NCBI RefSeq assembly: GCF_022836475.1
Contig: NZ_BQXH01000005.1
Coordinates: forward strand, 71,699-135,698
Length of the DNA stretch: 64,000 nt
Direction of reading: 5' to 3'
From: Ligilactobacillus pabuli
GTDB taxonomy: Bacteria; Bacillota; Bacilli; Lactobacillales; Lactobacillaceae
Shown here piece by piece: positions 10,948-63,890 of this stretch (its first letter is position 1; every line of letters starts with the position of its first letter). The translations under genes were made by a program, and so were the position numbers. A model generated the notes under the pieces. The model had not been told where the DNA came from, searched no databases, and saw only the letters and a list, made by a program, of their open reading frames with translations.

Positions 10948-11096
10948 ACCACTTTGCTCCGCTCTGTTATTTTAGTCGAGCTCCGTAAAGCAACTCCTTC
11001 CGTCTATCCAAGAATAGCCTTCAATGCCAAAAGTGCATCAAAGGCCATTCTCCGATAGTGCTCGGGAGTTAACCGCTTTGCTCCGCTCTGTTATTA
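10948..11096 (+). repeat. Family A structured repeat (about 125 bp), 1 copy plus flanking partial tail
   Basis: TAGTCGAGCTCCGTAAAGCA..CAATGCCAAAAGTGCATCAAAGG..CGCTTTGCTCCGCTCTGT. The same GCTCCGCTCTGT tail sits just upstream. Confidence 0.85.
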
Positions 11097-11114
11097 ATTG
11101 GAGGTTTTACTGAT

Positions 11115-11981
11115 ATGGAACAAAAAATTGCAGTGCTCTCCGATAGTCATGGAAACTCAACTGCTCTGCAAGCAGCCATCGACGATGCTACTGCCCAGGG
11201 GGCCAGCGAATTTTGGACCCTTGGCGATATTGCCTTTGGTGGAGCGACCTCCGAAGAATGTCTCCAGCTGTTAGACCAAGTTAATTTAACTCAAGTTTTA
11301 ATGGGTAACTGGGAAAGCGACTTCAACCAGGAAATGACTCAGCCTAACTGGGATCTTAGTGATCCGACTAATGTCTACTTCACTGTGCTTGTCAAGTATG
11401 AAAATGAACATTTGAGCGCCAAACACCGGCAACAACTAGTCCACCTGCCAATGTCTGGCCGTAAGCAAGTTGGCGACCTGCTCTTTTCATTGAGCCATAA
11501 CCTGCCAGGGCAAAACCATGGGCATAGCCTTTACCCCACCCAGCCTCAGGCTAATTTTGACCAGCTAGCGCTCGACTCGGCCATCGATGTGGCCATCTAC
11601 GCTCATATCCATAGTCCCCTCTGGCGTTACAGTGATCAGGGCCAAATTATTTTGAATCCCGGCGCCGTTGGTCGTCCCTGGAACACCCGAGCCAAGTTGC
11701 TGCAAAATCGGGCTGCCAGCTACCTTTTGCTGACAGTCAATGACACTGGGCTCGCTAAAGTCGATTTCCGCCGCGCCGCCTACGACTTAAACATTGAACT
11801 GCAAAAAGGCCGTGACCGAGGCTTCCCCTATGTCGACCTGGAACAAAAGCAGCTGTTAACGGGTCATTCATCGACCCACAACACCGCTTTACTAGCAGAA
11901 ATTAATGCCAAACGCGGTTATGACAAACTCGCAGCCAAATATTTGAATGAGCTAAAAGAACAAACACGAGCTGCACAATAA
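11115..11981 (+). CDS. Metallophosphoesterase (calcineurin-like phosphoesterase)
   Basis: 288 aa with DSHGN, GDIAFGG, GNWE and HIH motifs; GGAGG RBS. Confidence 0.75.
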   Translation: MEQKIAVLSDSHGNSTALQAAIDDATAQGASEFWTLGDIAFGGATSEECLQLLDQVNLTQVLMGNWESDFNQEMTQPNWDLSDPTNVYFTVLVKYENEHLSAKHRQQLVHLPMSGRKQVGDLLFSLSHNLPGQNHGHSLYPTQPQANFDQLALDSAIDVAIYAHIHSPLWRYSDQGQIILNPGAVGRPWNTRAKLLQNRAASYLLLTVNDTGLAKVDFRRAAYDLNIELQKGRDRGFPYVDLEQKQLLTGHSSTHNTALLAEINAKRGYDKLAAKYLNELKEQTRAAQ

Positions 11982-12012
11982 TCAGACCACACACTGGTCG
12001 TTTTCCAAAGTA

Positions 12013-12040
12013 ACCAGGCCTTTGAACCTGGTTATTTTAG
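12013..12040 (+). terminator. Rho-independent terminator
   Basis: AACCAGGcctttgaaCCTGGTTATTTT. Confidence 0.55.
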
Positions 12041-12206
12041 TGCACAAAAAAGCCCAGCGACTAAGTTTAAGGGGTCACTGGGCTTGAAGCATAGTTGTTT
12101 TTAGAGTAATCAACAAATTTTGGGAGGTCATTGATTACAATTTATATTGTATCAAACATTTCTCCGCTTGTTAAGTTTTATGCCCGAAAAGAATTATGGT
12201 AATCAC

Positions 12207-13277
12207 TTAGAATATTTGTAAGTCATTGCCGACCACAAAGTTCACTAGTGACCACAGGAAAATAACTCCCAGCATCACCAAATGGAACTTTTTATGGTTG
12301 GCCAACAAAGCAATGTACTCCCGGATAAACGCGTTCGGAATGAAAAAACGACTCGTTTTGGCGCCCAGACCGGCGATATTCAAACCGACATAGCGGGCAT
12401 AACCTGCGGCGCGGAAAGTATGGTAATCGCTGGTTGCGAAGAGGCCATGTTTCAGATCAACTTGATGGTCTTGCAAGATTTGTTTGGAAAAAGCCATGTT
12501 TTCGTACGTATTCTTCGACTTTTCTTCGGCAAGGCTCCGGGCAGGGTTCGCTCCATGAGCCAAGGCATACTCCTTCATAGCTGTCCCTTCCGGTTTGGTC
12601 TCATCGCCGCCCTGACCACCAGAAAAAATCAGCCAAGGATAATGGTGGGTCTTTTGTTCTTGTGCATTCGCAAAGTCTAAGGCACACTGGATGCGAGAAG
12701 CTAGCAGCGGCGAAACTTGGTCACCATTTAACAGCCCTGCTCCTAAAACAATAATGTAATCCTGGTTGTAGCTGGGCCGATACAGGCGCGTAATGATAAA
12801 GGACGTAATGAACGCTAAAAACCAAAAGACAAAGTAACCAAGGACTGGCACCACGAAAGAAGTGTAAAAGGTGACTGAATCTTGTGAGAAAAAGCTCCGG
12901 TCAACGAACCTGATCACTGGCAAAACCACCAGGATCAAGACTCCCAGACCTAGCGTCAGCATATTGCCTAAAGTGTGGCTTTCCTTGTGCCACACGGTGA
13001 TCGCGTTCCACAACAACAGCACGCCTAATAATGAATAAAGCAATAAGAGCGGGAAACCAATCACCGCTAACACTACGATCAACATTGTGTTGAGCCAGTG
13101 AATATTTGTGGCCTCGATTGCCAAAATCACTGTCACCGCAAACGATAGTAACGCTAGGTTACACAGGACTCCATTGAGGATCCGGAATTTATTTTGATGT
13201 AAACTAATTGCTAGTAAAACTACACAGACCAAGGTGAAAATCGTCCCGCCACTGATCAAAATTGCTGTTTGCCCCAT
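12207..13277 (-). CDS. Membrane protein with C-terminal YdcF/SanA (DUF218) domain
   Basis: 356 aa; about 6 N-terminal TM helices followed by a DUF218-like region (IIVLGAGLLNGDQVS..SGGQGGDE..TSDYHTFRA). Confidence 0.7.
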   Translation of the reverse strand: MGQTAILISGGTIFTLVCVVLLAISLHQNKFRILNGVLCNLALLSFAVTVILAIEATNIHWLNTMLIVVLAVIGFPLLLLYSLLGVLLLWNAITVWHKESHTLGNMLTLGLGVLILVVLPVIRFVDRSFFSQDSVTFYTSFVVPVLGYFVFWFLAFITSFIITRLYRPSYNQDYIIVLGAGLLNGDQVSPLLASRIQCALDFANAQEQKTHHYPWLIFSGGQGGDETKPEGTAMKEYALAHGANPARSLAEEKSKNTYENMAFSKQILQDHQVDLKHGLFATSDYHTFRAAGYARYVGLNIAGLGAKTSRFFIPNAFIREYIALLANHKKFHLVMLGVIFLWSLVNFVVGNDLQIF

Positions 13278-13454
13278 AAAAAAATACCTCGATCATCGTA
13301 AAATTAGTTGCTGGCCTGATTCGACCAGTTCATTTCTAATTTTACAAGAATTTGGTATTTTTTCAAATTTAATAATTGCTGGTTATCGCAAAATGGTTTT
13401 CCATAACCTATGAGTTCATTTTTTCTTTCAGTGACAGGACCTCATCCCGCATAA

Positions 13455-13765
13455 TCAAAAAGGAGCTTCAATGCAAGTACGCATTAAAACTCCTTTCTAC
13501 TTATTTTGCTCGGGTGTATTTAGTCGAGCTCCGTGAAACAGGAAGCTCCGCCTATCCATGACCAACCCTCAATGCCGAAACCGCATTAAAGGCCGGTCTC
13601 CGATATGCTCGGAAGCTAAACGCTTTGCTCCGCTCTGTGTTTAGTCGAGCTACTCAAGCCAGGACTTTCCGTCCATCTAAACCCAGCGGCCAATGCCTAA
13701 AGCGCATTAGCCACTAGGTTCCGATGGTACTCGAGTCCTCCCGGCTTGCTCCACTCTGTGTTTTT
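13455..13765 (+). repeat. Family A repeats: a fragment plus two tandem copies (period 123 bp)
   Basis: Copies at about 13518-13640 and 13641-13762. The array ends ..CTCTGTGTTTTTTA, where TTA is the complement of the rgg stop codon. Confidence 0.85.
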
Positions 13766-14625
13766 TATAAAGCGTAGCCCTGGGCATTTAATTCTGCCAC
13801 TGCTCGCTCCTTAACTTCATCATTATGGATGTGGTCAGCAAAAGTATACGCCATATACAAGGCCTGGATGGCTTCTGGGATCCATTTGCCATTGACACCC
13901 GCTAAAGCATAGGCCATGTTAATATACAACTTGTCGACTGGGCCCGAAATCATTTCCTTTTGTGCCATCGCAATTCCCTTACGTGTGATTTTCAAAGTTT
14001 CATCGTACTGCTTCATATTTAAATAGTAATAAGATGCATTGGTCCACAGCTGCAAGGTCGCATAGCTTTGTTTTTCTGGGTCGTGGTCCGCAAAGGCTTC
14101 CCGTGCCTGGTCGATGTAATACTTGGCTGGTTCAACTTTTCCAGCAATCAAGTATTCGACCGCTAAATCACTGGCAACTAATGGCCATAAAACGCCAATT
14201 TCGTGGTGTGTGACCTGCAAGATCCGGTTATAAGTGAAAATTGCGTCGGAGCGATGGTCAGTCGTTGAGTGCGCTAAGATCCATGCCCGCATATAGTCGC
14301 GCCACAAAGTCAGTTCAAGTGTCATATCATCTAATGTATCGAGTTTGTCCAAGATCTCGCTCGCAGCATCAAATTGGTGGTGCAAAATTCTGACCACTGC
14401 ACTCAAGACCAGCGAGTTGCCATCAATAAATTCTTCAGTGCCAACTGCTTCGGCAAAGCTCATATTCAAACGTGTAACAATTTTTTCCAAGGTTTCCCCA
14501 GAAGGAACGGCTGACCGAGTTTCGATCTGACTGATCATCCCTTGCGAAGTGATGCCCTCGGCGAGTTCCCCTTGGGACATTTTAAGTTCTTTTCTTCTTT
14601 TTCGAATTAATCCACCATTAATCAT
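13765..14625 (-). CDS. Rgg/GadR/MutR-family transcriptional regulator (XRE HTH plus C-terminal helical-repeat domain)
   Basis: 286 aa. N-terminal LIRKRRKELKMSQGELAEGI..SQIE HTH with an Rgg-like C-terminal domain; AGAGGT RBS. Confidence 0.6.
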   Translation of the reverse strand: MINGGLIRKRRKELKMSQGELAEGITSQGMISQIETRSAVPSGETLEKIVTRLNMSFAEAVGTEEFIDGNSLVLSAVVRILHHQFDAASEILDKLDTLDDMTLELTLWRDYMRAWILAHSTTDHRSDAIFTYNRILQVTHHEIGVLWPLVASDLAVEYLIAGKVEPAKYYIDQAREAFADHDPEKQSYATLQLWTNASYYYLNMKQYDETLKITRKGIAMAQKEMISGPVDKLYINMAYALAGVNGKWIPEAIQALYMAYTFADHIHNDEVKERAVAELNAQGYAL

Positions 14626-15096
14626 CTTATCTGTACCTCTTAACTAAAGTTTGTTTAACCGATTCTACTATTTCACTGTTACTTCTTAGCCGATAGATTC
14701 ACAATATCTATTATTATACATAATCAAATGTGATTCAACTAGAAGATTCCCCTGAGATTTACCACCAAGTAATACGTTTTACCTAAAAATAATCAACAGG
14801 CTTTTCCGACAGAGCAATCAAGTCAATTGTCTGGGTTTAACTATGGTAATTTGCCAGTTAATTTTTACCAGACCAATTCCACTAAATAGATTATACCATG
14901 CTATTGCGGAACTGTTCGAAATTAATGCTTGATTTAGGCAGGGGATTATCTAGTGCTAGCCGGTCAATTACGGTTAAATCTGCCTGGAAAACAACCAGTT
15001 TGGCTCACCGTCTGCATGACAGCGCTTTAATTTCCGAACATTTACCGCCATTTTGGTAGCTTTTTTCAATTTTAATGCAATAATTTCAACTTTTCA

Positions 15097-15125
15097 TTGA
15101 CTTTTACTCATTTTACCTTTAAAAT
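15097..15125 (+). promoter_or_regulatory. Promoter of sstT
   Basis: TTGACT (15097-15102), 17 nt, TAAAAT (15120-15125). Confidence 0.5.
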
Positions 15126-15175
15126 TCTAATAATATTATAATTTAAATGAGAAGAATTTAGTTGGAGGGAAAAAT

Positions 15176-16432
15176 ATGTTTCAAAAGTATACCAGGATCC
15201 CATTAATTGGGCGCATACTAATTGGCATTATCATCGGTGTCTTCGTAGGGGTGGTCCTTCCTTCTTGGACCTGGATCGACCTATTAGGAGAACTCTTTAT
15301 TGGTGCCTTGAAAGCCATCGCACCGCTGTTAGTCTTTATGGTCATCATGTCCTCGATCTCGGGCTATGAAAAAGGAACTGAAAATCATTTTGGAACTGTC
15401 ATTATTTTATACTTAGGAGCCACCTTCTTATCGGCCGTGGCTGCCGTGTTAGCTTCGTACTTATTTCCAATTAAGCTGGTTTTGTCAAAAGCTACAACCG
15501 CTTCGGCTGCGAATGCTCCCAAAGGCCTAGGGCAAATTGTCAGTGACCTGCTGACCAACGCCGTCTCAAACCCAGTGCATGCACTCATGAACGGTGACTA
15601 TTTGACGATTTTGTTCTGGGCCGTTTTGTTGGGGATCGCCCTTCAGGCTGCCAGTCAAACGACGAGAACGGTCATCAAAGACTTTTCACAGATGATTGGG
15701 AAAGTTACCGGCTGGATCATCGAATTCGCTCCATTTGGGATCGTTGGTCTGGTTCACCAAGCCTTAGTTGAAACAGGTACAAAGGGTGTCTTACGTTACG
15801 GCCAACTCGTTTTAATGCTGGTCGGCACGATGATTTTCGTCTATCTGGTCGTTTATTCATTAATGGTGTGGTCACTGACCCGCCAAAATCCATTTCCACT
15901 CGTTTTCTGGACGTTGAAGGTCTCGGGGATCCCCGCTTTCTTCACGCGAAGCAGTGCCGTCAATATTCCAATTAACCTGGAAGCCTGCGAAGATCTCGGG
16001 TTAAATGAAAAGAGTTATGGCGTTTCGATCCCACTGGGCGGTTCAGCCAACTCTGGCGGCGCGGCGATCACGATCTCGATCATGACCCTAGCTGCCACGC
16101 ACACTCTGGGAATGGACTTTTCTATTCCACTAGCTTTGGTCCTTTGTTTCCTAACGGCCATCGCTTCCACTGGTGTTTCCGGAATCGCCGGCGGTTCCCT
16201 CTTACTGATCCCCATGGCCTGCAGCCTCTTTGGTATCAGTAACGACATCGCCATGCAAGTGGTTGGGATCGGCTTTGTGATCGGTGTGATCCAAGATTCC
16301 GTTGAAACAGCCGTGAACTCAGCGTCTGACCTCTTGTTCACCGCCGCTGCCGAATACGGGGACCTGCGCAAGAGCGGGAAGCCTGTTAACATTTCCGCCG
16401 CGATCAAACGTGCAAACCAGGCCCGCGGGTAA
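15176..16432 (+). CDS. sstT: Serine/threonine:Na+ symporter SstT (DAACS family)
   Basis: 418 aa polytopic protein with clear SstT-like sequence; GGAGGG RBS. Confidence 0.8.
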   Translation: MFQKYTRIPLIGRILIGIIIGVFVGVVLPSWTWIDLLGELFIGALKAIAPLLVFMVIMSSISGYEKGTENHFGTVIILYLGATFLSAVAAVLASYLFPIKLVLSKATTASAANAPKGLGQIVSDLLTNAVSNPVHALMNGDYLTILFWAVLLGIALQAASQTTRTVIKDFSQMIGKVTGWIIEFAPFGIVGLVHQALVETGTKGVLRYGQLVLMLVGTMIFVYLVVYSLMVWSLTRQNPFPLVFWTLKVSGIPAFFTRSSAVNIPINLEACEDLGLNEKSYGVSIPLGGSANSGGAAITISIMTLAATHTLGMDFSIPLALVLCFLTAIASTGVSGIAGGSLLLIPMACSLFGISNDIAMQVVGIGFVIGVIQDSVETAVNSASDLLFTAAAEYGDLRKSGKPVNISAAIKRANQARG

Positions 16433-16636
16433 TATTCACAGAATAAAAAAGCTTGTTTAGAAGATGAACACTCAGAAGAAAAGACCTTCAATGCAACTTG
16501 GCATTGAAGGTCTTTTTTTAGGTGGACTGTTTTGAGACATTTGGGTACACAAGTCTATCTCAGTCACAATAATTGACTCTTTACCCTTAGCCTTGCATAC
16601 TTGGAAGTGAATTAACCTAGAAAAGAGGTTTTTCCA

Positions 16637-17359
16637 ATGAAAAAAATCAATCGTGGTATCGATGCCCCACTAGTTCCGTTAATTTTTATCCTAGCTAGTT
16701 TAATGGCACTGTTCTTTTGGATCACTTATCGCGCCTATCCCTTCGCTTGGCTCAATTCATTATTTGCCATTGCCATGTTGGCGGGTGCAGTCATTTTTCT
16801 GCATACTAGTTTACGAGGAAAATACCAGATTTGGGAACAGCTAACTAGTGAACTAACGATTCCGAAAGACGCGAAAATTTTAGACCTGGGTTGTGGACAT
16901 GGCCTAAATTTGATCAAATTTGCTCAACTAATTAGTCCGACCGGCAAAGTTGTTGGTGTTGACCTTTGGCGGTCCGTCGATCAATCGAAGAATAGCCGCG
17001 CTGCCACTGTCAAAAATTTAATTGCCGCTAACGTTCAGCAAAAAGTCTCTCTAAAAACTGCCGATATGGCTGACCTACCCTTTGGGGACGAAACTTTTAA
17101 CTTTGTCATTTCCAGTCTAGCTTTCCATAATATCAAACCAGCCGCCAAACGCCAGCGCGCACTGCAAGAAGCCATCCGCGTCTTACAACCGGGGGGACAA
17201 TTATTGCTGGTCGATACTGGTCACTATTTCAAACAATATCAGGCCGTCCTAGCCGCCCATAATTTGACAAACATTCAGCTCACTTCCGCCGGGGTCAATG
17301 GTTGGTGGACTGGACCTTGGATGCGGACCATGATCCTTACCGCACAAAAAGCGGCATAA
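16637..17359 (+). CDS. Class I SAM-dependent methyltransferase with N-terminal TM helices
   Basis: ILDLGCGHG motif I and VGVDLW post-I motif. Confidence 0.75.
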   Translation: MKKINRGIDAPLVPLIFILASLMALFFWITYRAYPFAWLNSLFAIAMLAGAVIFLHTSLRGKYQIWEQLTSELTIPKDAKILDLGCGHGLNLIKFAQLISPTGKVVGVDLWRSVDQSKNSRAATVKNLIAANVQQKVSLKTADMADLPFGDETFNFVISSLAFHNIKPAAKRQRALQEAIRVLQPGGQLLLVDTGHYFKQYQAVLAAHNLTNIQLTSAGVNGWWTGPWMRTMILTAQKAA

Positions 17360-17374
17360 TTTACGCTCAAAAAT

Positions 17375-17420
17375 AGCGTTAGTCACAAAAAGTAGATTCT
17401 TTGCTGACTAACGCTATTTC
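17375..17420 (+). terminator. Rho-independent terminator
   Basis: AAATAGCGTTAGTCA..TGACTAACGCTATTT. Confidence 0.6.
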
Positions 17421-17451
17421 GGTTGCTTGCCGCTCGCACGCGGTGGTTTGT

Positions 17452-17601
17452 CTATCTGCATGATTTGATCCATTGGAGATGTTCTTTTAACTTTGGATCC
17501 TCTGAAATTTCAGGATCTTGCGCCCAGTTATCTCCATAAGTTTGATCTAGATAGCTAATAATTTTATGTGTACGGATCCGCATTTCTTCACGGTCTGACA
17601 T
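17452..17601 (-). CDS. Small hypothetical protein, 49 aa (MSDREEMRIRTHKIISYLDQTYGDNWAQDPEISEDPKLKEHLQWIKSCR); not in the ORF track because it is under 60 aa
   Basis: ATG at 17601 preceded by AAAAAGGGG at 9 nt; stop TAG at 17452-17454. Confidence 0.3.
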   Translation of the reverse strand: MSDREEMRIRTHKIISYLDQTYGDNWAQDPEISEDPKLKEHLQWIKSCR

Positions 17602-17859
17602 GTCATTCGCCCCTTTTTTACTGCCTGATATTTCTACTTCTGTTACCCCGTATCTCTATCATACTTCATTTTGAACGAATAAGTTAAAAATAAGTCTCAA
17701 AAGGACTCTTTTTCGACTATTCTTTTGAAATAACAAGTCGGATCCGCTAATTTCTGCTTAACTTGCAGCACTTCTTGACTCCTACAAATGGCAGCCAACG
17801 TAGTCGCTCAGTAAATCACCCAAAAAAAAGAACCCTACCTTTACGATAGAGTTCAATTG

Positions 17860-17996
17860 CTAGTCACACTATGATAGTCGGGTTCTGCTAAACAAGGCTC
17901 TCAGCTTATCTAAGCCCAGCCTTCGATGCCAAAAATGCATCAAAGACTATGCTCCAATCATGCTCGGGAGCTGACCGCTTTGCTCCGCTCTGTGTT
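17860..17996 (+). repeat. Family A repeat, diverged copy, ending at the pncB stop codon
   Basis: ..CAGCCTTCGATGCCAAAAATGCATCAAAGACT..CGCTTTGCTCCGCTCTGTGTTTTTA, then the pncB stop (complement of TTA at 17998-18000). Confidence 0.75.
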
Positions 17997-17997
17997 T

Positions 17998-19458
17998 TTA
18001 GTCCACTCGATTATTTTCAATCAGTTCTTGCTGGACATCATATAATTCCTTCGAAATATAAACAGGATATTCGTCTGGATACAGTAAACGTTTCTTCGAT
18101 GCAGGTAATTCAGCTAATTTTTCCTGACTATACTGCTGGATCTCAAACACGCTTGGATTTCCCGTCAATAATTCTCCCTGTTCATTTAAAGCTTCTTTTT
18201 GTAGTTCAACTGCCTTCACGTTTCTTAATGTCTGGAAACGTTTGATAGCTTCTGGATCAGCACTTAGGACCTGCATATCTTCAATGTTGTCCAAAACTTC
18301 TTCTTCCCGTAATGTGACCAGGTCAGCAATTGGTTCGTCAGTCCGCGGATCATAGACCCGATAAACTCGTTTTCGTCCTGGAAGAGTTAGTTTGCCAAGG
18401 CTCGCACTAACTTTAACTTTTGGCAGCCAAGTGCCATCGGCTTTTTTCACAGCACTTAATTTGTAAACACCACTCAAAACTGGTGAGCTAGCGCTTGTGA
18501 TCAAGTTTTCACCGACCCCAAAGTTATCGATGGCAGCCCCTTCATTAACCAAAGACTGAATAATTTGTTCATCTAAGGCGTTTGAAGCTGTGATCGTTGC
18601 ATCCGGATAACCGGCGTCATCCAACATTTGGCGAGCTTTCGTTGATAATTGGGTAATGTCTCCAGAATCGATTCTCACACCAAATGAACTACTGTCAGAG
18701 CCCTTGGCTGACAACTCATCAAAGACCTGGATCGCATGCGGCATCCCAGAATGCAAAACATCATAAGTATCAACTAGTAATGAACAATTTTCAGGATAGA
18801 TCTTGGCCCAAGCCCGGAAAGCATCCAATTCCGTGTCAAAGGCTTCGATCCATGAATGTGCCATCGTTCCGGCAACCGGGATCCCGAATTTCTGTCCGGC
18901 CAACAAATTCGAGGTACTTGTACAACCGCCGATTACTGCGGCCCGTGCACCATAAACCGCACTTGCTGGTCCCTGTGCTCGACGTGCACCAAATTCCATG
19001 ACTGCCTTGTCCTTGGCTGCTGCCGAGATTCGGCGGGCCTTGGTAGCAATCAACGTTTGATGGTTAATGATATTTAATAATAAGGTTTCAAATAACTGAG
19101 CTTGGAGCAATGGTCCCTCAACCGTCACAACTGGTTCTCTTGGAAAGACTGGCGTCCCTTCTGGAATTGCATAGACCTTGCAGGTAAACTTAAAGTCCCG
19201 CAAGTAGTCCAAAAATTCTGGGGTAAACAACTGTAACCCACGCAAATATTCCAAATCAGCAGCGTCAAAGTGGAAGTTTTGCAACTCCTCTAAGGCTGTC
19301 CCAATTCCGGCTAAAACAACAAACCGTCCGTTATCTGGTAGTGTCCGGAAAAAGATGTCGTAAGACCCGCGTTCTTCCGCCATTTCTTCGTGAAAACCAT
19401 TTGCCATAGTATATTCATATAAATCGGTCAGTAGTGCCATATTTCCTTGCTCGATCAT
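17998..19458 (-). CDS. pncB: Nicotinate phosphoribosyltransferase
   Basis: 486 aa with PncB N-terminal and catalytic domains; AGGAGG RBS. Confidence 0.9.
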   Translation of the reverse strand: MIEQGNMALLTDLYEYTMANGFHEEMAEERGSYDIFFRTLPDNGRFVVLAGIGTALEELQNFHFDAADLEYLRGLQLFTPEFLDYLRDFKFTCKVYAIPEGTPVFPREPVVTVEGPLLQAQLFETLLLNIINHQTLIATKARRISAAAKDKAVMEFGARRAQGPASAVYGARAAVIGGCTSTSNLLAGQKFGIPVAGTMAHSWIEAFDTELDAFRAWAKIYPENCSLLVDTYDVLHSGMPHAIQVFDELSAKGSDSSSFGVRIDSGDITQLSTKARQMLDDAGYPDATITASNALDEQIIQSLVNEGAAIDNFGVGENLITSASSPVLSGVYKLSAVKKADGTWLPKVKVSASLGKLTLPGRKRVYRVYDPRTDEPIADLVTLREEEVLDNIEDMQVLSADPEAIKRFQTLRNVKAVELQKEALNEQGELLTGNPSVFEIQQYSQEKLAELPASKKRLLYPDEYPVYISKELYDVQQELIENNRVD

Positions 19459-19598
19459 AGATCGTTCCTCCTAGAAAACAATAAAGGTATTTTTTACTTT
19501 TAATTGAATAAAAAACAAAAGCCTGGTTCTTTGCAGTTGATACTACTCTTCTTACCGAATAATTGCAACCACGAACCTACAGACCTGCTGTTATCAAA

Positions 19599-19881
19599 CC
19601 GGTGATAGTGCTAGTTTGCCCCACTCTGTTTTTGTAGTCTGGGTTCCGTGAAACAGAAAGTTCCGCCCATCTAACCCCAGGAACCAATGCTAAAAGCACA
19701 TTAGTCCCTAGGTTCCGATGGTGCTCGAGTCTTAACCGGCTTGCTCCGCTCTGTTTTTGTAGTCGAGCTGCTCAAAGCAGCTTCTTCCGCCTATCCAAGA
19801 CCAACCTTCAATGCCCAAAACGCATTAAAGGTCAGTCTCCGATATGCTCGGAAGCTAATCGCTTTGCTCCGCTCTGTTTTT
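19599..19881 (+). repeat. Family A repeats: partial tail plus two tandem copies, between the nrtR-like stop and the pncB start
   Basis: Copies at about 19635-19757 and 19758-19880 (period 123 bp); ends CTCTGTTTTTA at the nrtR stop codon. Confidence 0.85.
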
Positions 19882-20650
19882 AGGCTTCCTTCAAGCGATA
19901 AACCTTCGCAGGGCGCCCACGCTTCTTGGAGACCGAGATCCCCGTTTCTTCAAAGAGCTTACTGTGTGTTTTAGTGAAATTAGAATTGTCGATCTGTTCC
20001 ATCTTCGTTTGTAAGAATGGTGCATAAACACAGCGCGCCTCCCTAATGGTAAAGCTGTCGCCCAAAATTAATAAAATATTTGGCTGATAATCCAGCTTAT
20101 TTCTGATGCGTAAACAAGCAACCTTAATGATCCACTCATAATCAAAGGCCAATCGATGCGGCGTTTTTTTGACATAGGCCGCCAAATTAGCGTAATAATC
20201 CTCTTGCTTTTGTTCCGCTGCCACCTGAAACTGCACTAGCCCATTGCTAAAACAGTAACGGGAATCGACCGTCGACAGCGCAAACCAGCGTGCGTCACTA
20301 GCACCATAACCTGGATTTAATGGCGGCATTTCCGGCAAAAAAGTCATATACGCCAACGATAAATTGCGGTGGTGAGCCGTGACCCGTTGTGGGGCCGTGA
20401 AAGTTTCTAACTGTTCCGTATGGAAAGCTGCCAATTTCAAACCGATTTTATCCTGTACTAAACGAAGCGCCGCTTGATCCGCACTTTCATGTTCACCCAG
20501 AAATGTCTCTGGCAACGCCCACATTCCGAGCGCTGGTCGTTCAGATCGCTTGACTAACAACAAATTGACCTGATTTGTTTCCCGGTCAAAGCTCCAGATC
20601 AAATTAACAATATTAATTTGTGTCAAACGATTTTCTTCCTTCATGAACAT
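19880..20650 (-). CDS. NrtR-like Nudix-related transcriptional regulator (degenerate Nudix domain plus C-terminal winged HTH)
   Basis: 256 aa. The Nudix-like segment GX5EX7RLVQDKIGL is degenerate. The C-terminus KTHSKLFEETGISVSKKRGRPAKVYRL is wHTH-like. It sits directly upstream of pncB. Confidence 0.5.
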   Translation of the reverse strand: MFMKEENRLTQINIVNLIWSFDRETNQVNLLLVKRSERPALGMWALPETFLGEHESADQAALRLVQDKIGLKLAAFHTEQLETFTAPQRVTAHHRNLSLAYMTFLPEMPPLNPGYGASDARWFALSTVDSRYCFSNGLVQFQVAAEQKQEDYYANLAAYVKKTPHRLAFDYEWIIKVACLRIRNKLDYQPNILLILGDSFTIREARCVYAPFLQTKMEQIDNSNFTKTHSKLFEETGISVSKKRGRPAKVYRLKEA

Positions 20651-22269: not shown

Positions 22270-22400
22270 AGATTTTGGTGCTGTACACATTACTTTGGTG
22301 AACTTATGTCTACAGATTCTGCTGTACACATTACTTTCGCGAACTTATGTCTACAGATTCCACTGTACACATTACTTTCCCGGACTTATGTCTACAGATT
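22270..22400. repeat. Tandem array, 41-bp unit, about 3.3 copies (family B, orientation 1, variant CATTAC)
   Basis: ATGTCTACAG recurs at 22306, 22347 and 22388. Confidence 0.85.
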
Positions 22401-22449
22401 CTTGGTTACTCAGACAATGCAAACTTCCAGACTGCTTCTTCACTAAAAA

Positions 22450-27226: not shown

Positions 27227-27277
27227 CAGGTGCAAAGCTTTGGGAAAGTCCAAAATTTTGCACCTGTTTTTTTGCAG
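27227..27277 (+). terminator. Rho-independent terminator after pox
   Basis: AACAGGTGCAAA..TTTTGCACCTGTTTTTTT. Confidence 0.7.
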
Positions 27278-27295
27278 TAGTGTTATAATTTTAGT

Positions 27296-44765: not shown

Positions 44766-44794
44766 AGCTACAATGCTTATATTTTCCAGTGCTA

Positions 44795-49146: not shown

Positions 49147-49181
49147 ACTTACACTCACACCTAAGAAAGCAGGAAAAGCCT

Positions 49182-50069: not shown

Positions 50070-50186
50070 TTGCATTAATTCAAGTTACTTTACTATCCAA
50101 AATTCACCAAACTCGTTACAATAAGGATGAGAAGTGAAGTCGTTAAACACAACGAGTCACTCACTGATTTAGAAAGGATGATTAGT

Positions 50187-52752: not shown

Positions 52753-52894
52753 AGCCAGACTCTGTTTTTAGTCGAGCTCCACCAGTCAGGACTTTCCCCT
52801 ATCCAAGACCAGCCTTCAATGCCAAGTACGCATTAAAGACTAGGCTCCGATAGTGCTCGAGTCCTCCCAACTGGCTCCGCTCTGTTTTTTGCTT
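52753..52894 (+). repeat. Family A repeat, one copy plus partial tail; its T-rich end runs into the -35 of the downstream promoter
   Basis: TAGTCGAGCTCCACCAGTCAGG..CAATGCCAAGTACGCATTAAAGAC..GGCTCCGCTCTGTTTTTTGC. Confidence 0.85.
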
Positions 52895-57900: not shown

Positions 57901-58292
57901 TCTCGGGTTAATTCTGTGATTGTAGTCGAGTTCCTTAACTCAGAAGATTCCGCCTAACCTGCTTTCTGTCACGATGCCTAAACCGCATCATGCCCGAAAG
58001 CTTGTTAATGCTCATCTTCTAACCGGGTTAATCCGCTCTATGATCTTTAGTCGAGCTACTTGAAACAGAAAGTTCCGCCCATCCAAACCCAGGACCCAAT
58101 GCCAAAAACGCATTAGTCCCTGGGTCCCGATGGTGCTCGCTTTCTAATCGTTTCATTCCGCTCTGTGATCTTAGTCGAGCTACTCAAGCCAAGACTTTCC
58201 GCCTACCCTAGCCCAACCTTCAATGCCTAATGCGCATTAAAGGCTAGGCTCTGATAGTGCTCGAGTCTTAAACGGCTTGCTCCGCTCTGTGA
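57901..58292 (+). repeat. Family A repeats: variant A2 copy plus two standard copies in tandem (period about 124 bp), between a dehydrogenase stop and the vanZ start
   Basis: Copies at about 57913-58043, 58045-58167 and 58169-58291. The array ends CTCTGTGATTTTA at the stop of the 58295 gene. Confidence 0.9.
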
Positions 58293-58294: not shown

Positions 58295-59260
58295 TTAGTA
58301 CCCCTTTTTCAAATCTACTTCATTTCTGACCAATGTTCCATCAACTTCATATTGTTGTAGATTTTCCTTGAAAATCTTGATCACATCTTGCGCATATTCT
58401 TGATACAAGCCCGAAACATGCGGTGTGATCAAAACATTATCCATTTGCCACAATTGACTGTCCTCTGGTAGTGGTTCCGGTGCCGTTACATCTAGTCCTG
58501 CCGCACTAACCTGTCCAGCTTTCAAAGCGGCTACCAAATCATCCGTGACCACACTTGGACCACGCCCAATATTGATAAACAATGGGGCCGCTTCTAAGGC
58601 TGCAAAAAATTCTGCATCGTATAATCCGCGTGTTTCATCAGTTAGTGGCAAAGTATTAACGATCACCGCAGCATCTTTGACTGCCTCCGTCATTTGGCTG
58701 AGAGGCAAAGTTTGGTTGAAACCATCAGCTGGATGACCTGAGTGATTAACCCCGACCGTCTCCATGCGGAAGGCCTGCCCTAGTTCGGCAATTCGTGTAC
58801 CAATATGGCCAGTTCCAATGACTGCTAGTTTTTTATCACTCAAAACAGTGTAGCCAAAGTCAGCCGGTTGCCAGTGATTTTTCTGTTGCTGCACAACTGC
58901 ATCCTTGATACCGCGAAAATGGCTCAACATCATTCCAAGTACTGTTTCAGCAATTGGTTCTGCATGGATCCCGCTCACATTTGACAATAAGATCTGTCGC
59001 TTAGCGAGTTGGTCTAATGGAAAATAATCAACCCCCGCAGAAAAAGCTTGGATCCATTTTAACTGCGGTTTTTCTAAACTAAAGATTCGGTCTAAGATTC
59101 CCGTGGCATTCCCCAGTAAAATGTCAATTTCAGCTAACTGCTGGTCAGATAATTCATCATTGGCAAAGAAATATTCATGCTCTGATTCTGCCGCTAATTT
59201 TTTTAATGCATCCTTAGCGCCCTCGTGATTTAAAGTTCCGCCTAATACTAAAATTTTCAC
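58295..59260 (-). CDS. NAD-dependent D-isomer-specific 2-hydroxyacid dehydrogenase
   Basis: 321 aa from GTG 59260 (AGAGAGG RBS) with GTGHIG NAD motif and catalytic R/E/H. Confidence 0.8.
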   Translation of the reverse strand: MKILVLGGTLNHEGAKDALKKLAAESEHEYFFANDELSDQQLAEIDILLGNATGILDRIFSLEKPQLKWIQAFSAGVDYFPLDQLAKRQILLSNVSGIHAEPIAETVLGMMLSHFRGIKDAVVQQQKNHWQPADFGYTVLSDKKLAVIGTGHIGTRIAELGQAFRMETVGVNHSGHPADGFNQTLPLSQMTEAVKDAAVIVNTLPLTDETRGLYDAEFFAALEAAPLFINIGRGPSVVTDDLVAALKAGQVSAAGLDVTAPEPLPEDSQLWQMDNVLITPHVSGLYQEYAQDVIKIFKENLQQYEVDGTLVRNEVDLKKGY

Positions 59261-59403
59261 TCTGCTCACCTCTCTATTTGAAATTAATTATACACTAGAT
59301 TAGTTGTTTTTCTAAAGAAAACGCTAATGCAGCCGTTCTTGTTCGACTGATCAGCTAAAAAAAGCCAAAGTCTCCTATTAACAAGAAACTTTGGCAACTT
59401 TAT

Positions 59404-60063: not shown

Positions 60064-60633
60064 TTAATTTTCTGGTTTAAATAATTTTGGTGCTCGAACA
60101 GCTAACAACCAAACAATGATCATGGCTGCAATAGCTTCAGGAATCATATAAGTTGCATTGTAAATAGTCGAGTAAGCAAAGACTGACTGACCCTTAGGAG
60201 TATATTCACCATAGAAAACGATCCCGGAAATTACGTTGTTCAAATAGGCCATGAAAGCACCCAAGAAACTAGCAGCCAAGGTATAACCAAAAACTTGGCC
60301 CTGCTTTTTTTCAGTTAAAGCGTTTTGTAGTGGTTTAGCGAAGAAACCAGCGAAGCCGACTGTCCCAAAACAAAAGACATAGTCAAACAATACTTGGAGC
60401 GGATTCAAGAAGTAGCCGCCAAACATTAACTGCACGATTCCACAAATAGCACCAGCCGTGCAACCCCAAATTGGTCCCCGACGCAATGACAAGAAAATCA
60501 AAGGAACCAAAACAAGTGAAACACTTCCGCCTTGCGGCATCCGGAAAATAACAATGTAACTTAACACTAGTGATAAAGCCGCCATGATGGCCGTTTCGGT
60601 CAAAAGACGGGTCGAACTTTTAGCTTGTGACAT
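60064..60633 (-). CDS. thiT: ECF-transporter S component for thiamine (ThiT)
   Basis: 189 aa, 6 TM helices. GAGGAGG RBS. Preceded by a TPP riboswitch. Confidence 0.8.
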   Translation of the reverse strand: MSQAKSSTRLLTETAIMAALSLVLSYIVIFRMPQGGSVSLVLVPLIFLSLRRGPIWGCTAGAICGIVQLMFGGYFLNPLQVLFDYVFCFGTVGFAGFFAKPLQNALTEKKQGQVFGYTLAASFLGAFMAYLNNVISGIVFYGEYTPKGQSVFAYSTIYNATYMIPEAIAAMIIVWLLAVRAPKLFKPEN

Positions 60634-60839
60634 AAAAATCCTCCTCAGGATAATAACTACGGTGTGCCTGTACAATAATTGCCTAAAATTGATCATTTTT
60701 GAATGAACAAAATTTTTACTGGCACGCCATTTGAATTAAAAAATTGCTAACACCGAAACCAATCATTTACCAAGTCTAGTCTTTCTCTCTCCTAATCTTG
60801 ACCAAAGAATCAAATTGTTCTTTGGTATCTAAAATACCA

Positions 60840-60995
60840 CAAAAAAATCTCCCACAGCATACAGCCACAGGAGATTTGTTTTAATCACTACATTTAAAAT
60901 TGCACGAATAATTAAGTCTGTCTCCCTTCGCCGGTATGATCCGTATCAGGTTCAATGGGTGTTTTCTCAGCCTAGCGGCACCCCAGATGTCTTAT
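60840..60995 (-). ncRNA. TPP (THI-box) riboswitch with terminator, controlling thiT
   Basis: Minus strand reads CTGGGGTGCCgctagGCTGAGAaaacACCCattGAACCTGATacGGaTcATaCCgGCGaAGGGA (60905-60990), then terminator AAATCTCCTGTGGC..GCTGTGGGAGATTTTTTT (60841-60884). Confidence 0.85.
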
Positions 60996-61055: not shown

Positions 61056-62225
61056 CTAGTTCGTTCCTTCTGGCTGACGCACTAACAAAATCATGCCAGT
61101 CACTACCACATGTGCCAAAAAGAAGATCCAGAAAGTTTGACCATAACCAAGTGCCGTGATCAAACTTCCACCTGCAAGCGGTCCAAGTGCTCGTCCCAAT
61201 GAACCCGATAAACTACTAAGCGATTGCAGCCGCCCCCGGTTATTATCATGGGCATAGCGGTTCAGCAACATCGGAATCGCAGTTAGGGCTAAAATTTCAC
61301 CAACAGATACAAAAGTGATCCCAACTACAAACTGCCAGTAGACCTTGGCATAAACCAAGGTCAAATAGGAACCCGCAAAAATTAATGTCCCTAAAATCAC
61401 TCGCAAACGGTCAGCGCGAAAACTATTTCGAAACAGGCGAGTCAACAATGGCTGCAGCACCACAATTTCAACTGTTGAAATTGTAAACAGCATACTATAA
61501 GAAGTTACAGAAATTCCCTGTTCGGTCATCAAAACCGCAACATTACTATTCCACTGCTCATAGCATAACCAGATCGTGATCATCGTGATACAAATTAACA
61601 CCACACTCCAGGGATGTCGGCTATTAGCTGCTGATTGCTGTTTTTGACTTTCATTATTAGTCTGCGCCACAGTAAATGTGGGAAATTTAATTCGAATTAG
61701 CAGTATAGTTAGTAAAAATAAAACAGCTGCCCCAGCAAAAATCAGGCGAATACTAATATCGAACAACACCCCGGATAACAAAGTTGCAACCGCCATCCCA
61801 ATATTGGCCATCCAATAACCATTATTGAAAATCTGGGCATCTTCTTTTTGTAAAAAAGCTAGAAAACCGTTAATAGCAGAATTTAAAATCCCGAGACCCA
61901 GACCATAAACGCCTAATAACACTGGGTACCACGGCCAAATGGGAAAAATTGCCAGTAAAATCAAAGCGAGTACTTGGGTAATGCCACCCACATACATCGT
62001 TTTTTTCTGGTGCCAACTATCAAATAATTGTCCACCGATCAAATTTCCCACTGTCATCGCCCCAGAAAAGCCTAATAAGACATAGCCCGCAACCACCAAG
62101 CTTTGATGGAGCGAATTATGCACATATAAAGTGGTGATTGGCATGATCAATCCGATCCCCATATTGACCAGCATATCCGCTAAGAGCACAAATTTGTTTT
62201 TCACATCCCATAATCTACCTTCCAT
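61056..62225 (-). CDS. MFS transporter (12 TMS)
   Basis: 389 aa polytopic with MFS motifs. Confidence 0.8.
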   Translation of the reverse strand: MEGRLWDVKNKFVLLADMLVNMGIGLIMPITTLYVHNSLHQSLVVAGYVLLGFSGAMTVGNLIGGQLFDSWHQKKTMYVGGITQVLALILLAIFPIWPWYPVLLGVYGLGLGILNSAINGFLAFLQKEDAQIFNNGYWMANIGMAVATLLSGVLFDISIRLIFAGAAVLFLLTILLIRIKFPTFTVAQTNNESQKQQSAANSRHPWSVVLICITMITIWLCYEQWNSNVAVLMTEQGISVTSYSMLFTISTVEIVVLQPLLTRLFRNSFRADRLRVILGTLIFAGSYLTLVYAKVYWQFVVGITFVSVGEILALTAIPMLLNRYAHDNNRGRLQSLSSLSGSLGRALGPLAGGSLITALGYGQTFWIFFLAHVVVTGMILLVRQPEGTN

Positions 62226-62335
62226 TACACCTCAAGTGTATGATTTGTGTTAGTACTATCGTACTGATTGATTGCTTAATTTGCAACAACTCAGTACAAT
62301 TAGACCATTAACTAACATTTTGGAGGTGTACTAGC

Positions 62336-62896
62336 ATGTTTTCTTATCAAATCGATGACCAGCTTAGCCTAACCATTCCGCGTCCACAACTTGACGCTGA
62401 ACCGTTATTTAAGTTAGTCGATGAAAATCGCTCTTATCTCAGTCCCTGGCTGCCTTGGGTCCCTAAAATGGCTAGTGTTCGCGACGAAGAACAATTTTTA
62501 ACCAGCGTTTTACAACATTTTGGCAACGGCAGTTCCGTCAACTTGGTGATTCGTGACACCCGCCAACCAGTAGGCATGATCAGCTTAAATAGTTTCCGCC
62601 AGCAAGATCACAGTACGGAGATCGGCTACTGGCTAGGGCAACAATTTGCCGGACAAAATATTATGCACCGGGCAGTTTTAGGACTATGCGACCTCAGCTT
62701 TACCGATTATGATTTAAATAAAATCGAGATCCACGCTGCCGTCGAAAATCTTCCTAGTAACAATGTTGCTCAAAAAGCCGGTTTTCATTTGGACGGTCAA
62801 GTTCGGGCACAGGAGTTACTAGTTGATGGCTATCATGATGGCAATGTCTGGTCTCTACTCAAAGATGAATGGCAGCAACAAAGGAGTGTACTATGA
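62336..62896 (+). CDS. GNAT N-acetyltransferase (RimJ/RimL-like)
   Basis: 186 aa; GGAGG RBS. Confidence 0.8.
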   Translation: MFSYQIDDQLSLTIPRPQLDAEPLFKLVDENRSYLSPWLPWVPKMASVRDEEQFLTSVLQHFGNGSSVNLVIRDTRQPVGMISLNSFRQQDHSTEIGYWLGQQFAGQNIMHRAVLGLCDLSFTDYDLNKIEIHAAVENLPSNNVAQKAGFHLDGQVRAQELLVDGYHDGNVWSLLKDEWQQQRSVL

Positions 62897-63648
62897 AGCT
62901 TGATTTAAACGTGACGCTTTCTGACACTGAAACCAAAATTGTCCTTCCTGCAGAGCAATTGCAGCTCACACTCACTGATTCTGCGACGGCAAGTCAGACC
63001 AAGGAAGCGGCAGTTTGTCTCTTATTTGACCAGCATCAGTTAACGGGGATCACAACCACTCCCTTACTAAAACGGATCTCTGCTCCTGAAGCAGCAATGG
63101 TTCAGAGTACCAGCGCTCAGCTAGACCAGCAGGACTTAGCTTTGGCGCTGACCGAACTGACCAACCCCTCTGTGGCCAAACAACCAACTAGTGACAAAGC
63201 TGCTCAGGCCAGTGCCAAAACTGTTTTGGTGGTTTTAAGCCGCTTTGGCTACCGCTGGCAAACTAACAAGCCTCGCAAAAAGGCCGGCAAACCACAACAT
63301 AAATGGTCCAAAGAACTGGCAACTGTCCCCTTTTACTTAGATTATGGCGGGGCCACGGCAACTGTCTTCTGGCAAAAGCGTAACCAAATGCTGATCCAAG
63401 CTGGGGCACAGTTACAATCAGAAGTCCCCTTAAATAAAGACGGTTCCGTCGGCTTTTCAGCACGTTTCGCCCAGAAACTGCGCAGTGAACATCAAGCTGC
63501 CATCGCCGGAACGCAAACTAAAACTGATGTGATCTTAAAAAGTCCGAATGAAGTAGGTCTCTTCCTCTATTTTGGCGGCACCAATTGCTGGTTACAACTT
63601 AAAGATGAGACTGGTCGGACCCTAGCCGATTGGAGTCAGACTAACTAG
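62893..63648 (+). CDS. Hypothetical protein (251 aa), translationally coupled to the GNAT gene (ATGA overlap)
   Basis: AAAGGAG RBS inside the GNAT 3' end. Low-complexity Q/A/T-rich N-terminal half and a conserved-looking C-terminal region. Confidence 0.55.
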   Translation: MKLDLNVTLSDTETKIVLPAEQLQLTLTDSATASQTKEAAVCLLFDQHQLTGITTTPLLKRISAPEAAMVQSTSAQLDQQDLALALTELTNPSVAKQPTSDKAAQASAKTVLVVLSRFGYRWQTNKPRKKAGKPQHKWSKELATVPFYLDYGGATATVFWQKRNQMLIQAGAQLQSEVPLNKDGSVGFSARFAQKLRSEHQAAIAGTQTKTDVILKSPNEVGLFLYFGGTNCWLQLKDETGRTLADWSQTN

Positions 63649-63749
63649 TCTTCTTTCATTGACTAATAGGCACTTATCCACGTATATTAGACTAGTGGTC
63701 AATTTGTATTGTGCGCAATACAGCACAGCAAACTGACTACTAGTCTTTT

Positions 63750-63890
63750 TGTTGTGCTCTTGTGTTTGTAGTCGAGCTCCGTGAAACAGAAAGCTCCGCC
63801 TATTCTAGTCCGACCTTCCATGCCCAAAGCGCATTAAAGGTCGGACTATGATAGTGCTCACTTTCTCCCGTTTCACTCCGCTCTGTTATT
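63750..63890 (+). repeat. Family A repeat, one copy plus partial tail
   Basis: TAGTCGAGCTCCGTGAAACAGAAAGCTCCGCC..CATGCCCAAAGCGCATTAAAGG..CCGCTCTGTTATTTTTAG. Confidence 0.85.

Follow-up and report, generated by a model that had tools for sequence, protein, structure and literature searches.

Several families of short, structured intergenic repeats are known from bacteria. The ERIC/IRU elements of enterobacteria are transcribed, intergenic, imperfect palindromes of ~127 bp that occur in both orientations and form long RNA hairpins. BOX, RUP, and SPRITE of Streptococcus pneumoniae are small structured intergenic repeats that occupy a few percent of the genome and lie near gene ends; BOX is built of three modules, A-B(n)-C, and RUP, which carries terminal inverted repeats, is associated with an insertion sequence of the IS630 type. 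The Correia/NEMIS elements of Neisseria are high-copy, gene-adjacent, cotranscribed hairpins of 100 to 155 bp with 26-nt terminal inverted repeats and a TA target duplication. REP/REPIN, ERIC, BOX, and Correia repeats are classic but poorly understood, and mechanistic work on them has been done almost entirely in Proteobacteria. Here, we describe a repeat family from a 64,000-nt stretch of the Ligilactobacillus pabuli genome (NCBI RefSeq assembly GCF_022836475.1, contig NZ_BQXH01000005.1, positions 71,699 to 135,698; referred to below as the window), which is ordinary chromosomal DNA with housekeeping genes. The repeat unit is one long hairpin that stands singly or in head-to-tail arrays, and it belongs to a dense, structured, and hitherto undescribed repeat family that is confined to the L. 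acidipiscis clade of Ligilactobacillus.

The family shares features with each of these groups. It resembles ERIC/IRU in size, intergenic setting, occurrence in both orientations, and long hairpin fold; it resembles the pneumococcal elements as an intergenic repeat of Lactobacillales that takes up a few percent of the DNA near gene ends, with tandem modules as in BOX; and like Correia/NEMIS it is a high-copy, gene-adjacent hairpin element in the range of ~100 to 155 bp. REPINs show compensatory changes, insert into or next to existing copies, and leave asymmetric remnants on excision (PMC3116915). The likeness to REP/REPIN sequences covers extragenic hairpins of ~100 nt in hundreds of copies, predicted in single-stranded DNA or mRNA, as well as clustering by insertion into or beside copies, asymmetric remnants, and lineage-restricted, vertically inherited families (PMC3116915).

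A hairpin conserved through compensatory changes on one strand

An nhmmer profile built from 10 units recovered 15 full-length copies at 9 loci of the window (E = 1e-13 to 1e-35), exactly the loci at which the initial annotation had reported at least 15 copies. With the consensus read as originally written, matches in the + orientation lie at 10973, 13521/13642, 17875, 19642/19760, 32632/32758, 52769, 57923/58048/58172, and 63769, and inverted copies are found at 49137 and 49015. Counts of 5, 12, and 16 were obtained for three diagnostic motifs, versus 0.04, 0.15, and 0.5 expected from dinucleotide-preserving shuffles. A covariance model (CM) added two diverged copies (16439-16547 and 31323-31408, both +), and several internally deleted mini-copies are also present. 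Unit DNA totals 1,957 nt, or 3.06% of the window. Units measure 116 to 119 nt and are separated by A-rich linkers of 4 to 8 nt, which gives a tandem period of 121 to 127 bp; the tandem spacing first described is thus confirmed, with a measured range wider than the 123 to 127 bp originally given. Below, CM bit scores are quoted for each unit, and the strand given is the structured (well-folding) strand, which is the reverse complement of the strand on which the consensus was originally written.

Alignment of the 15 window copies indicates that the entire unit forms a single rod-like hairpin of 41 pairs; the long hairpin proposed at the outset is therefore real, whereas its restriction to a central inverted repeat is not. 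Each unit consists of an A-rich leader of 5 to 6 nt followed by 118 nt, within which the helices, counted upward from the hairpin base, are named P1 to P5 (basal stems, P1 to P3; apical stem, P5). P1 (4 bp, GAGC/GCTC) leads into a conserved internal loop of GGAG opposite GAGnA, P2 (6 bp) is followed by an unpaired GGTTA, and P3 (6 bp) is followed by a second conserved loop of (C/T)GA opposite GGA(A/G). P4 (7 bp) contains a bulged A, and P5 (18 bp) closes on a terminal loop of 7 nt. The internal loops are asymmetric, G/A rich, and conserved. The head at the 5′ end reads ACAGAGCGG, and the unit closes 3′ with GCTCGACTA; in the structured orientation, a unit reads A-run, ACAGAGCGGAGC ... GAGCAC-TATCGG ... 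TAATGCG-TTTT-GGCATTG ... GGATAGGCGGAA ... CTG ... GAGnAGCTCGACTA. By inspection, the CGA/GGAA loop possibly forms tandem G-A pairs; a K-turn reading of the same loop was rejected because the loop sizes do not fit the canonical motif.

Covariation was evaluated in three sets: the 15 window copies, 31 copies (window plus three reference loci), and 102 metagenome copies that took no part in model building. In the first set, RNAalifold recovered the 41 pairs, 27 of them with compensatory changes. Among the 31 copies, 92.8% of pair cells were paired, compared with 70.4% in column shuffles and 31 to 44% in slid controls; 38 of the 41 pairs showed double changes (covariation score of 0.61 versus 0.22, with 0 of 500 shuffles as high). 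The independent metagenome set gave 94.9% of cells paired and 39 of 41 pairs covarying (score of 0.69 versus 0.22). Model-fitted alignments lean towards the structure; plain MAFFT alignments give the same picture. The covariance analysis that had been suggested for this family thus finds a conserved secondary structure with compensatory changes in both of the larger sets.

The structure is also a property of one strand. Fold energy averages −50.5 kcal/mol on the structured strand versus −36.7 kcal/mol on its complement, and all 29 copies tested favor the structured strand. Among window copies, there are 62 G-U against 18 A-C combinations. Counts from a larger set come to 261:49 where the copy lies on the G-rich replication strand and 186:39 where it lies on the C-rich strand, a ratio of ~5:1; because the excess is alike on both, the asymmetry belongs to the element, and replication mutation bias is ruled out as its source. 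We conclude that the structure is kept through compensatory changes and is specific to one strand. Neither an outward promoter nor a terminator was found within the unit, and no unit was called terminator-like in a scan of 10500-20000. On the structured strand, the stem is followed 3′ by GACTA and an A-run, not by the U-tract that defines an intrinsic terminator.

Beneath the shared fold, sequences vary widely. Pairwise identity among window copies averages 68% (range, 48 to 87%), and identity in the basal stems is nearly uncorrelated with that in the apical stem (r = 0.15). The copies at 58048 and 63769, for example, are 100% identical in the basal stems and 44% identical in the apical stem. 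Such uncorrelated identities indicate that units are mosaics of interchangeable stem modules set between conserved loops. The variant core with common ends originally recognized at 48897 and 57913 corresponds to a single apical stem type carried by both units.

These properties separate the family from those it resembles. By eye, it has no sequence similarity to ERIC, which is highly conserved and lacks head-to-tail arrays; the distinction is one of architecture. Architecture also sets it apart from BOX and RUP: one 41-bp hairpin makes up the unit, terminal inverted repeats like those of RUP are missing, and the insertion sequences listed for L. acidipiscis include no IS630. The 26-nt terminal inverted repeats and TA duplication of Correia elements were not found. 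Unlike miniature inverted-repeat transposable elements (MITEs) of the terminal-inverted-repeat type, the ends share only 4 to 5 nt, again with no IS630 listed in L. acidipiscis, and the orientation expected of IS200/IS605-derived elements was not seen (67 versus 56 copies on the two replication strands). As in REPINs, the unit is a high-copy hairpin with compensatory changes (~1 copy per 3.8 kb; 38 to 39 of 41 pairs covarying). A REPIN, however, joins two inverted REPs with two invariant 16-mers, a symmetry that the unit lacks: its conserved blocks differ between head (ACAGAGCGGAG) and tail (GAGnAGCTCGACTA), complementarity between the two is confined to GAGC/GCTC, and copies are far more diverse, at 68% identity, than a population around one master sequence. 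Compared with the REP consensus sequences of PMC2817692, the structured strand has no evident GTAG/GTGG head (ACAG instead); it starts with an A-run and then CAGAG, and its complement starts with (G/T)TAGTCGAGC. In the RAYT table of PMC2817692, every host is proteobacterial, whereas the host here is a Firmicute, and no RAYT gene was found in the window open reading frames (ORFs) scanned or in the related loci examined, which represent partial genomes only. Since the defining features of each named family are absent or not demonstrable, the repeat cannot be filed under any one of them.

Distribution and whole-unit turnover among relatives

The initial annotation had anticipated a family reaching beyond the window, and copies were found in L. 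acidipiscis (6 in 21 kb, plus 3 in another strain), in L. salitolerans (5 in 21 kb), and in 33 of the 36 metagenome stretches retrieved with a degenerate sequence pattern (102 copies; all stretches 36 to 44% G+C). A strict first pattern applied to the genome collection returned only L. acidipiscis and chance matches. As a measure of relatedness, the NAPRTase of the window is 81% identical to those of L. acidipiscis and L. salitolerans and 88% identical to that of a metagenome organism (locus L016). With the CM speed filters off, no copy was detected in L016 (12 kb of the 88% relative), L020 (21 kb of a 77% relative), or L080 (21 kb of Ligilactobacillus sp. WC1T17). The absence from L016 extends to the region orthologous to a window stretch with two arrays. 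The plasmids, phages, and viral contigs searched gave no match, and an origin there was rejected. No Rfam 15 family overlaps any unit of the window at gathering score, and a three-unit array has no match at E ≤ 10. The family is not mentioned in the L. acidipiscis genome paper, and literature searches by topic and by motif strings returned no description, only unrelated primer matches, in keeping with the original impression that it had not been characterized in lactobacilli. Density is ~1 copy per 3.8 to 3.9 kb, an estimate that rests on two samples chosen irrespective of repeat content; it extrapolates, as opposed to being counted, to ~600 to 700 copies per genome if the genome measures 2.3 to 2.6 Mb.

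Relatives have empty sites where the window carries units. In L016, nothing separates the NrtR stop codon from the NAPRTase promoter region, a junction at which the window has ~310 nt of units, and a terminator directly follows the NAPRTase stop codon with no unit between, compared with the window unit at 17875-17992. (Displacement of the NrtR C terminus by an insertion inside the coding region was considered and rejected after protein alignment.) In L020, the 5′ untranslated region (UTR) of the metallophosphoesterase gene is without a unit. Short-read assemblies break inside arrays: contigs carrying the NAPRTase gene (the 17998-19458 region; P0001, L030, and L034 to L037) are at most 2.5 kb long, and L030 both starts and ends in arrays.

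Turnover is also evident within the species. Conspecific contigs (including the NCBI metagenome-assembled genome GCA_019114105.1; some European Nucleotide Archive record names suggest farm-animal samples) with identical flanking proteins differ by whole units: 2 versus 4, 3 versus 4, 1 versus 3, and 0 versus 1. The divergent murE/lipid-kinase spacer contains two units in the window, 48898-49015 (+; 104.1 bits; variant apical stem) and 49022-49137 (+; 113.9 bits; short head remnant next at 49138-49154), versus four different units in six other samples. The array at 57923-58289 comprises three units on the − strand: u3 (58172-58289; 128.2 bits), starting 4 nt past the TAA of a D-2-hydroxyacid dehydrogenase gene (58295-59269, −), u2 (58048-58165; 129.1 bits), and u1 (57923-58040; 111.6 bits; variant apical stem), after which a head remnant of the same basal-stem type as u1 (57902-57922) extends to the vanZ ribosome-binding site. 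In L038 and L042, a fourth unit lies exactly between u3 and u2. The extra unit of L038, uY, has a near-identical counterpart in L022, where it is unit 1 of the murE array, and one unit type has therefore recently appeared at a second locus. The single window unit at 63769-63885 (−; 119.4 bits) contrasts with three at the same site in L041 and L043, and unit a′ of L038 there has the basal stems of the window unit and a different apical stem. Where the window has a single unit at 52769-52884 (−; 112 bits; head remnant 52754-52768) adjoining the trpX operon promoter region, all that L024 carries is a head remnant of 36 nt, which is of a different type. Between the orthologous arrays of L046, L048, and L071, three related metagenome organisms, no unit is shared; three near-identical tandem copies in one of these arrays show that local duplication also occurs. 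These comparisons show precise whole-unit gain and loss between conspecific strains.

In the Usp/lipid-kinase spacer, a full, diverged unit is present in L022 and L038 to L042, with an imperfect copy of a 29-nt head-like sequence on either side, whereas alignment of filled and empty sites shows only a solo 29-nt head-like sequence in the window (50142-50170, −). An imperfect direct repeat of the head is what Campbell-type integration would leave, and it would suit cassette-like units integrated by a site-specific recombinase (integron attC-like or Xer/dif-module-like), with small single-stranded circles recombining at the head. A conserved structure over varying sequence, a strand-specific fold, tandem arrays, and strain-specific content would likewise fit. 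However, aligned units have no GTTRRRY/RYYYAAC core sites and contain no cassette ORFs, their 4- to 8-nt linkers being likewise free of ORFs; neither the window ORFs scanned nor the genes called on related loci yielded an integrase domain; and arrays are dispersed over dozens of loci, in contrast to the one platform of an integron. We regard this explanation as very improbable.

Whole-unit differences could also arise with no dedicated mobility, if old hairpin repeats were spread and homogenized by recombination, gene conversion, and slippage and hairpin-forming copies survived preferentially. Near-identical tandem units within arrays (L018, 8664-9029; L046, 904-1275), whole-unit differences with 13 to 25 nt of junction homology on both sides, and module swaps between units are consistent with such a history. 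It leaves three observations unexplained: colonized sites that are empty in relatives, the 5:1 G-U over A-C asymmetry tied to element orientation, and 93 to 95% pairing at 68% identity. On these grounds, a purely recombinational origin seems improbable.

A separate rearrangement was noted at the right edge of the window. Positions 63886-64000 are unlike L038 19803-19900 and L039 19669-19770; in L038 and L039, a Trep_Strep-domain gene directly adjoins the unit with its ribosome-binding site and start, and the window sequence there is unrelated. The breakpoint to the right of the last window unit falls exactly at the unit head.

Gene-boundary placement and a model for propagation

The 133 modeled copies group into 64 arrays, a few of which are one locus sampled twice: 26 have one unit, 16 have two, 14 have three, 7 have four, and 1 has five, with units always head to tail. 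The 5′ end of an array is clean and carries an A-run like that of the internal linkers (63 to 95% A at positions −5 to −1). The 3′ end usually carries a head-like remnant. Most remnants are internally deleted mini-copies that keep both termini, such as 10923-10967 (−), which reads as ~28 nt of head joined to ~20 nt of tail ending CCAGACTA, 63741-63768, which closes the single-unit array at 63769, and one in L057 (ACAGGGCAAAGTAGCTCGACTA). Loss of the central palindrome is the expected product of hairpin-provoked replication slippage. Remnants do accompany the loci, as first described, but they are mostly these mini-copies, not partial copies of the tail, and there is none at 17875.

Placement relative to genes was scored for 58 arrays. 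In 23 (40%), the head end is directed at the start of an opposite-strand ORF (80 codons or longer), and the structured strand runs antisense to the adjacent gene in its 5′ UTR; the complement of a Shine-Dalgarno sequence lies 8 to 12 nt from CAGAG in 23 of 26 motif-level cases. In another 18 (31%), the head end follows the stop codon of an ORF on the same strand, at 0 to 6 nt in 13 of the 18, and in 2 of the 18 the unit itself provides the stop codon. Most remaining arrays come after a T-run. Co-orientation with transcription was rejected as a rule, given 4 sense versus 3 antisense among codirectionally flanked arrays and the overall 40% antisense to an adjacent 5′ UTR.

In the window, the start-facing class is represented by the unit at 10973-11090 (−; 121.7 bits), whose head end lies 9 nt from the Shine-Dalgarno sequence of a metallophosphoesterase gene (11115-11981, +) on the opposite strand. 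A promoter-like site at 10873-10901, conserved with L020, lies upstream and places the unit in the 5′ UTR. Units that follow stop codons include 13642-13758 (−; 126.8 bits), which starts 5 nt past the TAA of a helix-turn-helix regulator gene (13765-14625, −) and heads an array with a second unit at 13521-13637 (−; 97.7 bits) and a shortened, degenerate copy that closes it at 13446-13520 (−; nhmmer partial match 13435-13516, and inspection of the sequence). The diverged unit at 16439-16547 (+; 43.7 bits; E = 4e-9) lies directly past the stop of sstT (15176-16432, +). The array of 19760-19876 (−; 124 bits) starts 2 nt past the TAA of an NrtR-like gene (19880-20650, −) and continues with 19635-19753 (−; 90.7 bits) and a degenerate, internally deleted copy recognized by eye at 19578-19634 (−). 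The single unit at 17875-17992 (−; 94 bits) occupies the 3′ UTR of the NAPRTase gene, between the stop codon (17998) and a terminator-like hairpin located by a terminator scan (17854-17830). The unit at 32758-32874 (−; 121.2 bits) overlaps the last 13 nt of a major facilitator superfamily transporter ORF (32862-34247, −), providing its final codons and stop codon; it is followed by a second unit at 32632-32749 (−; 125.7 bits) and a head remnant at 32609-32631. The original statement that all copies are intergenic and lie near gene ends, promoters, or terminators is accordingly correct for most copies but not strictly so. The remaining diverged copy (31323-31408, +; 37.7 bits; E = 2e-7) is short and has no apical stem.

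This placement raises the question of function in the host. The units may be host-selected, cis-acting RNA modules in UTRs, serving as 3′-UTR stabilizers or processing sites where the transcript is in the structured orientation, or as modulators of translation initiation where the complement precedes a Shine-Dalgarno sequence at short distance; selection on every copy would then keep the structure, with spread secondary. Features typical of RNA are present (G-U pairs and conserved internal loops rich in G and A), and both the arrays just past stop codons, one of them between stop codon and terminator, and those near Shine-Dalgarno sequences fit such roles. At the latter, the unit end has a conserved CUCC/CUCUG that can base pair with the GGAG beside it, and the minimum-energy fold predicted for the 5′ UTR upstream of the gene at 11115 contains this helix; the pairing is weak and missing from the centroid structure. 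In L052 (1914-1945) and L064 (10327-10360), head remnants (ACAAGGCGGAGG and ACAGAGTGGAGG, respectively) provide a GGAGG 6 to 8 nt upstream of the downstream ATG, and element debris appears to have been co-opted there as a ribosome-binding site. Against RNA modules as the basis of the family, the well-folding strand is antisense to the neighboring mRNA in 40% of arrays, units are replaced, added, or lost between strains with nearly identical flanks, and close relatives lack units at corresponding sites. We therefore consider selection as host RNA modules rather unlikely.

Units in 5′ and 3′ UTRs probably do affect expression of neighboring genes, and from their positions, long hairpins near stop codons and ribosome-binding sites likely influence mRNA decay and translation. 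Such an effect is a consequence of where units lie, not the reason for which their structure is conserved. Because 40% of arrays are antisense to the only nearby mRNA and units are freely exchanged, a local RNA function at every copy is unlikely to maintain the structure. The strand-specific structure is better explained as a requirement for propagation.

On balance, we judge that the family is probably a non-autonomous, structure-selected mobile DNA repeat of the REPIN/MITE type that inserts beside existing copies. Whole-unit differences between strains, empty orthologous sites, and covariation support the initial assignment to small mobile or RNA-structured elements like MITE, REP, RUP, or Correia sequences. 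In the mechanism we propose, a unit would be copied via a single-stranded intermediate of the structured strand, and a trans-acting, structure-recognizing enzyme encoded elsewhere would read the conserved loops and ends. Recognition confined to loops and ends would allow the stems to drift by compensatory changes while pairing persists, and to be shuffled as modules. New units would insert 5′ of an existing head or at A/T-rich sites beside coding-region boundaries, so that arrays grow; hairpin-provoked internal deletion, unequal recombination, and module exchange would shrink and reshuffle them. The clean 5′ ends, decayed 3′ copies, and precise insertion between units fit insertion 5′ of an existing head or near coding regions.

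Several results weigh against this mechanism. No transposase, reverse transcriptase, or integrase/recombinase domain was found in the window ORFs scanned (NCBIfam and Pfam), and 280 kb of metagenome contigs contain no multicopy ORF beside arrays. In the published annotation of L. acidipiscis, the only entry of the IS200/IS605 type is a pseudogene, and IS630 is not listed. Target duplications, proposed at the outset as a diagnostic, could not be defined: the unit 3′ end is always ...GACTA, the last upstream TA lies 0 to 8 nt from the head, and the flanks are A/T rich. The upstream TA, present in most arrays but at a variable distance in A/T-rich DNA, is likewise no evidence of an IS630-like TA duplication. 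Terminal inverted repeats amount to only 4 to 5 nt. Nor is there a replication-strand bias: 13 of the 15 window copies lie on the G-rich strand, an imbalance that vanished in the larger set (67 copies on the G-rich and 56 on the C-rich strand; counted by locus, 12 versus 5), which argues against an IS200/IS605-type lagging-strand mechanism. Recombination or gene conversion via the conserved ~25-nt junctions could produce unit gain and loss without transposition, and the tight gene-boundary placement might stem from function instead of target choice.

The same absence of strand bias, together with the strand-specific, G-U-rich structure, would suit a retroposon resembling the short interspersed nuclear elements (SINEs), in which transcripts in the structured orientation, arising in 3′ UTRs, for instance, are reverse transcribed by a resident enzyme, for example, a group II intron protein, and integrated at A/T-rich sites. 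To our knowledge, such a retroposon is without precedent in bacteria. A variable-length A-rich stretch at every unit junction fits this route, as do the mosaic modules, which template switching predicts. Candidate enzymes exist: published gene tables for L. acidipiscis ACA-DC 1533 list ~20 group II intron reverse transcriptase genes, many of them identical paralogs, and a 21-kb stretch of this strain (L018) contains two reverse transcriptase/maturase genes (412-1806 and 19237-20631), so a group II intron appears very active in this strain. Conversely, no reverse transcriptase was found in the window ORFs scanned or among genes called on conspecific contigs, remnants are internal deletions with both ends and not 5′ truncations, and no variable target duplications were seen. 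We hold retroposition by this route to be quite improbable. A bolder and more speculative extension is that the units are SINE-like replicators that are copied via a single-stranded form, RNA or otherwise, of one fixed strand, are recognized only by their conserved loops, and target the position 5′ of their own head as well as the exact edges of coding regions, the arrays being strain-specific insertion records that tune translation; we offer this as a long shot.

Other features of the window and significance

A second, unrelated repeat family occurs at 6115-6317, 10665-10780, and 22279-22402, as intergenic 41-bp tandem units (consensus, about TGTAGACATAACTTTCCCGGATTAACGTGTACAGATGCTGC) in 3 to 5 copies per site, one site lying only 190 nt from the hairpin unit at 10973. 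Near-identical terminator-like hairpins at 10608-10637 (+) and 17854-17830 (−), of the form GAACTCTATCG(C/T)AA(A)GGTAGGGTTC followed by a T-run, come after unrelated genes (D-lactate dehydrogenase and NAPRTase, respectively) and may represent a third small repeated element. Tandem units of 41/123 bp at 44789-45063 lie just past a penicillin-binding-protein gene (42472-44724) and overlap an ORF (44773-45099), and a 42-bp repeat is found at 36895-37000. Downstream of a pyruvate oxidase gene, 27274-27459 (+) matches the Listeria small-RNA family rli28 of Rfam above the gathering score (62.7 bits; E = 2.5e-5). A thiamine pyrophosphate riboswitch (60906-60995, −; 62.6 bits) upstream of a thiamine-transporter-like gene (60064-60696) is an ordinary feature. 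An ABC-transporter ATPase appears to be split into two ORFs (2778-3356 and 3405-3860, −) with an ABC_tran and a NIL domain, which may reflect a frameshift or a pseudogene.

The repeat family described here is a very dense lactobacillar case of structured repeats (~3% of the DNA) with a clean structural signal, consisting of 41 pairs and a 5:1 strand asymmetry. Its value lies also in the precise placement of units at translation starts and stops and in the turnover of whole units within one species. In practical terms, the arrays fragment metagenome and short-read assemblies and could serve as strain-typing markers. For the biology of such elements, the family makes testable the nature of a mobilizer without an obvious transposase, the choice between a DNA and an RNA intermediate, and the effects of hairpins on gene expression near ribosome-binding sites and stop codons.

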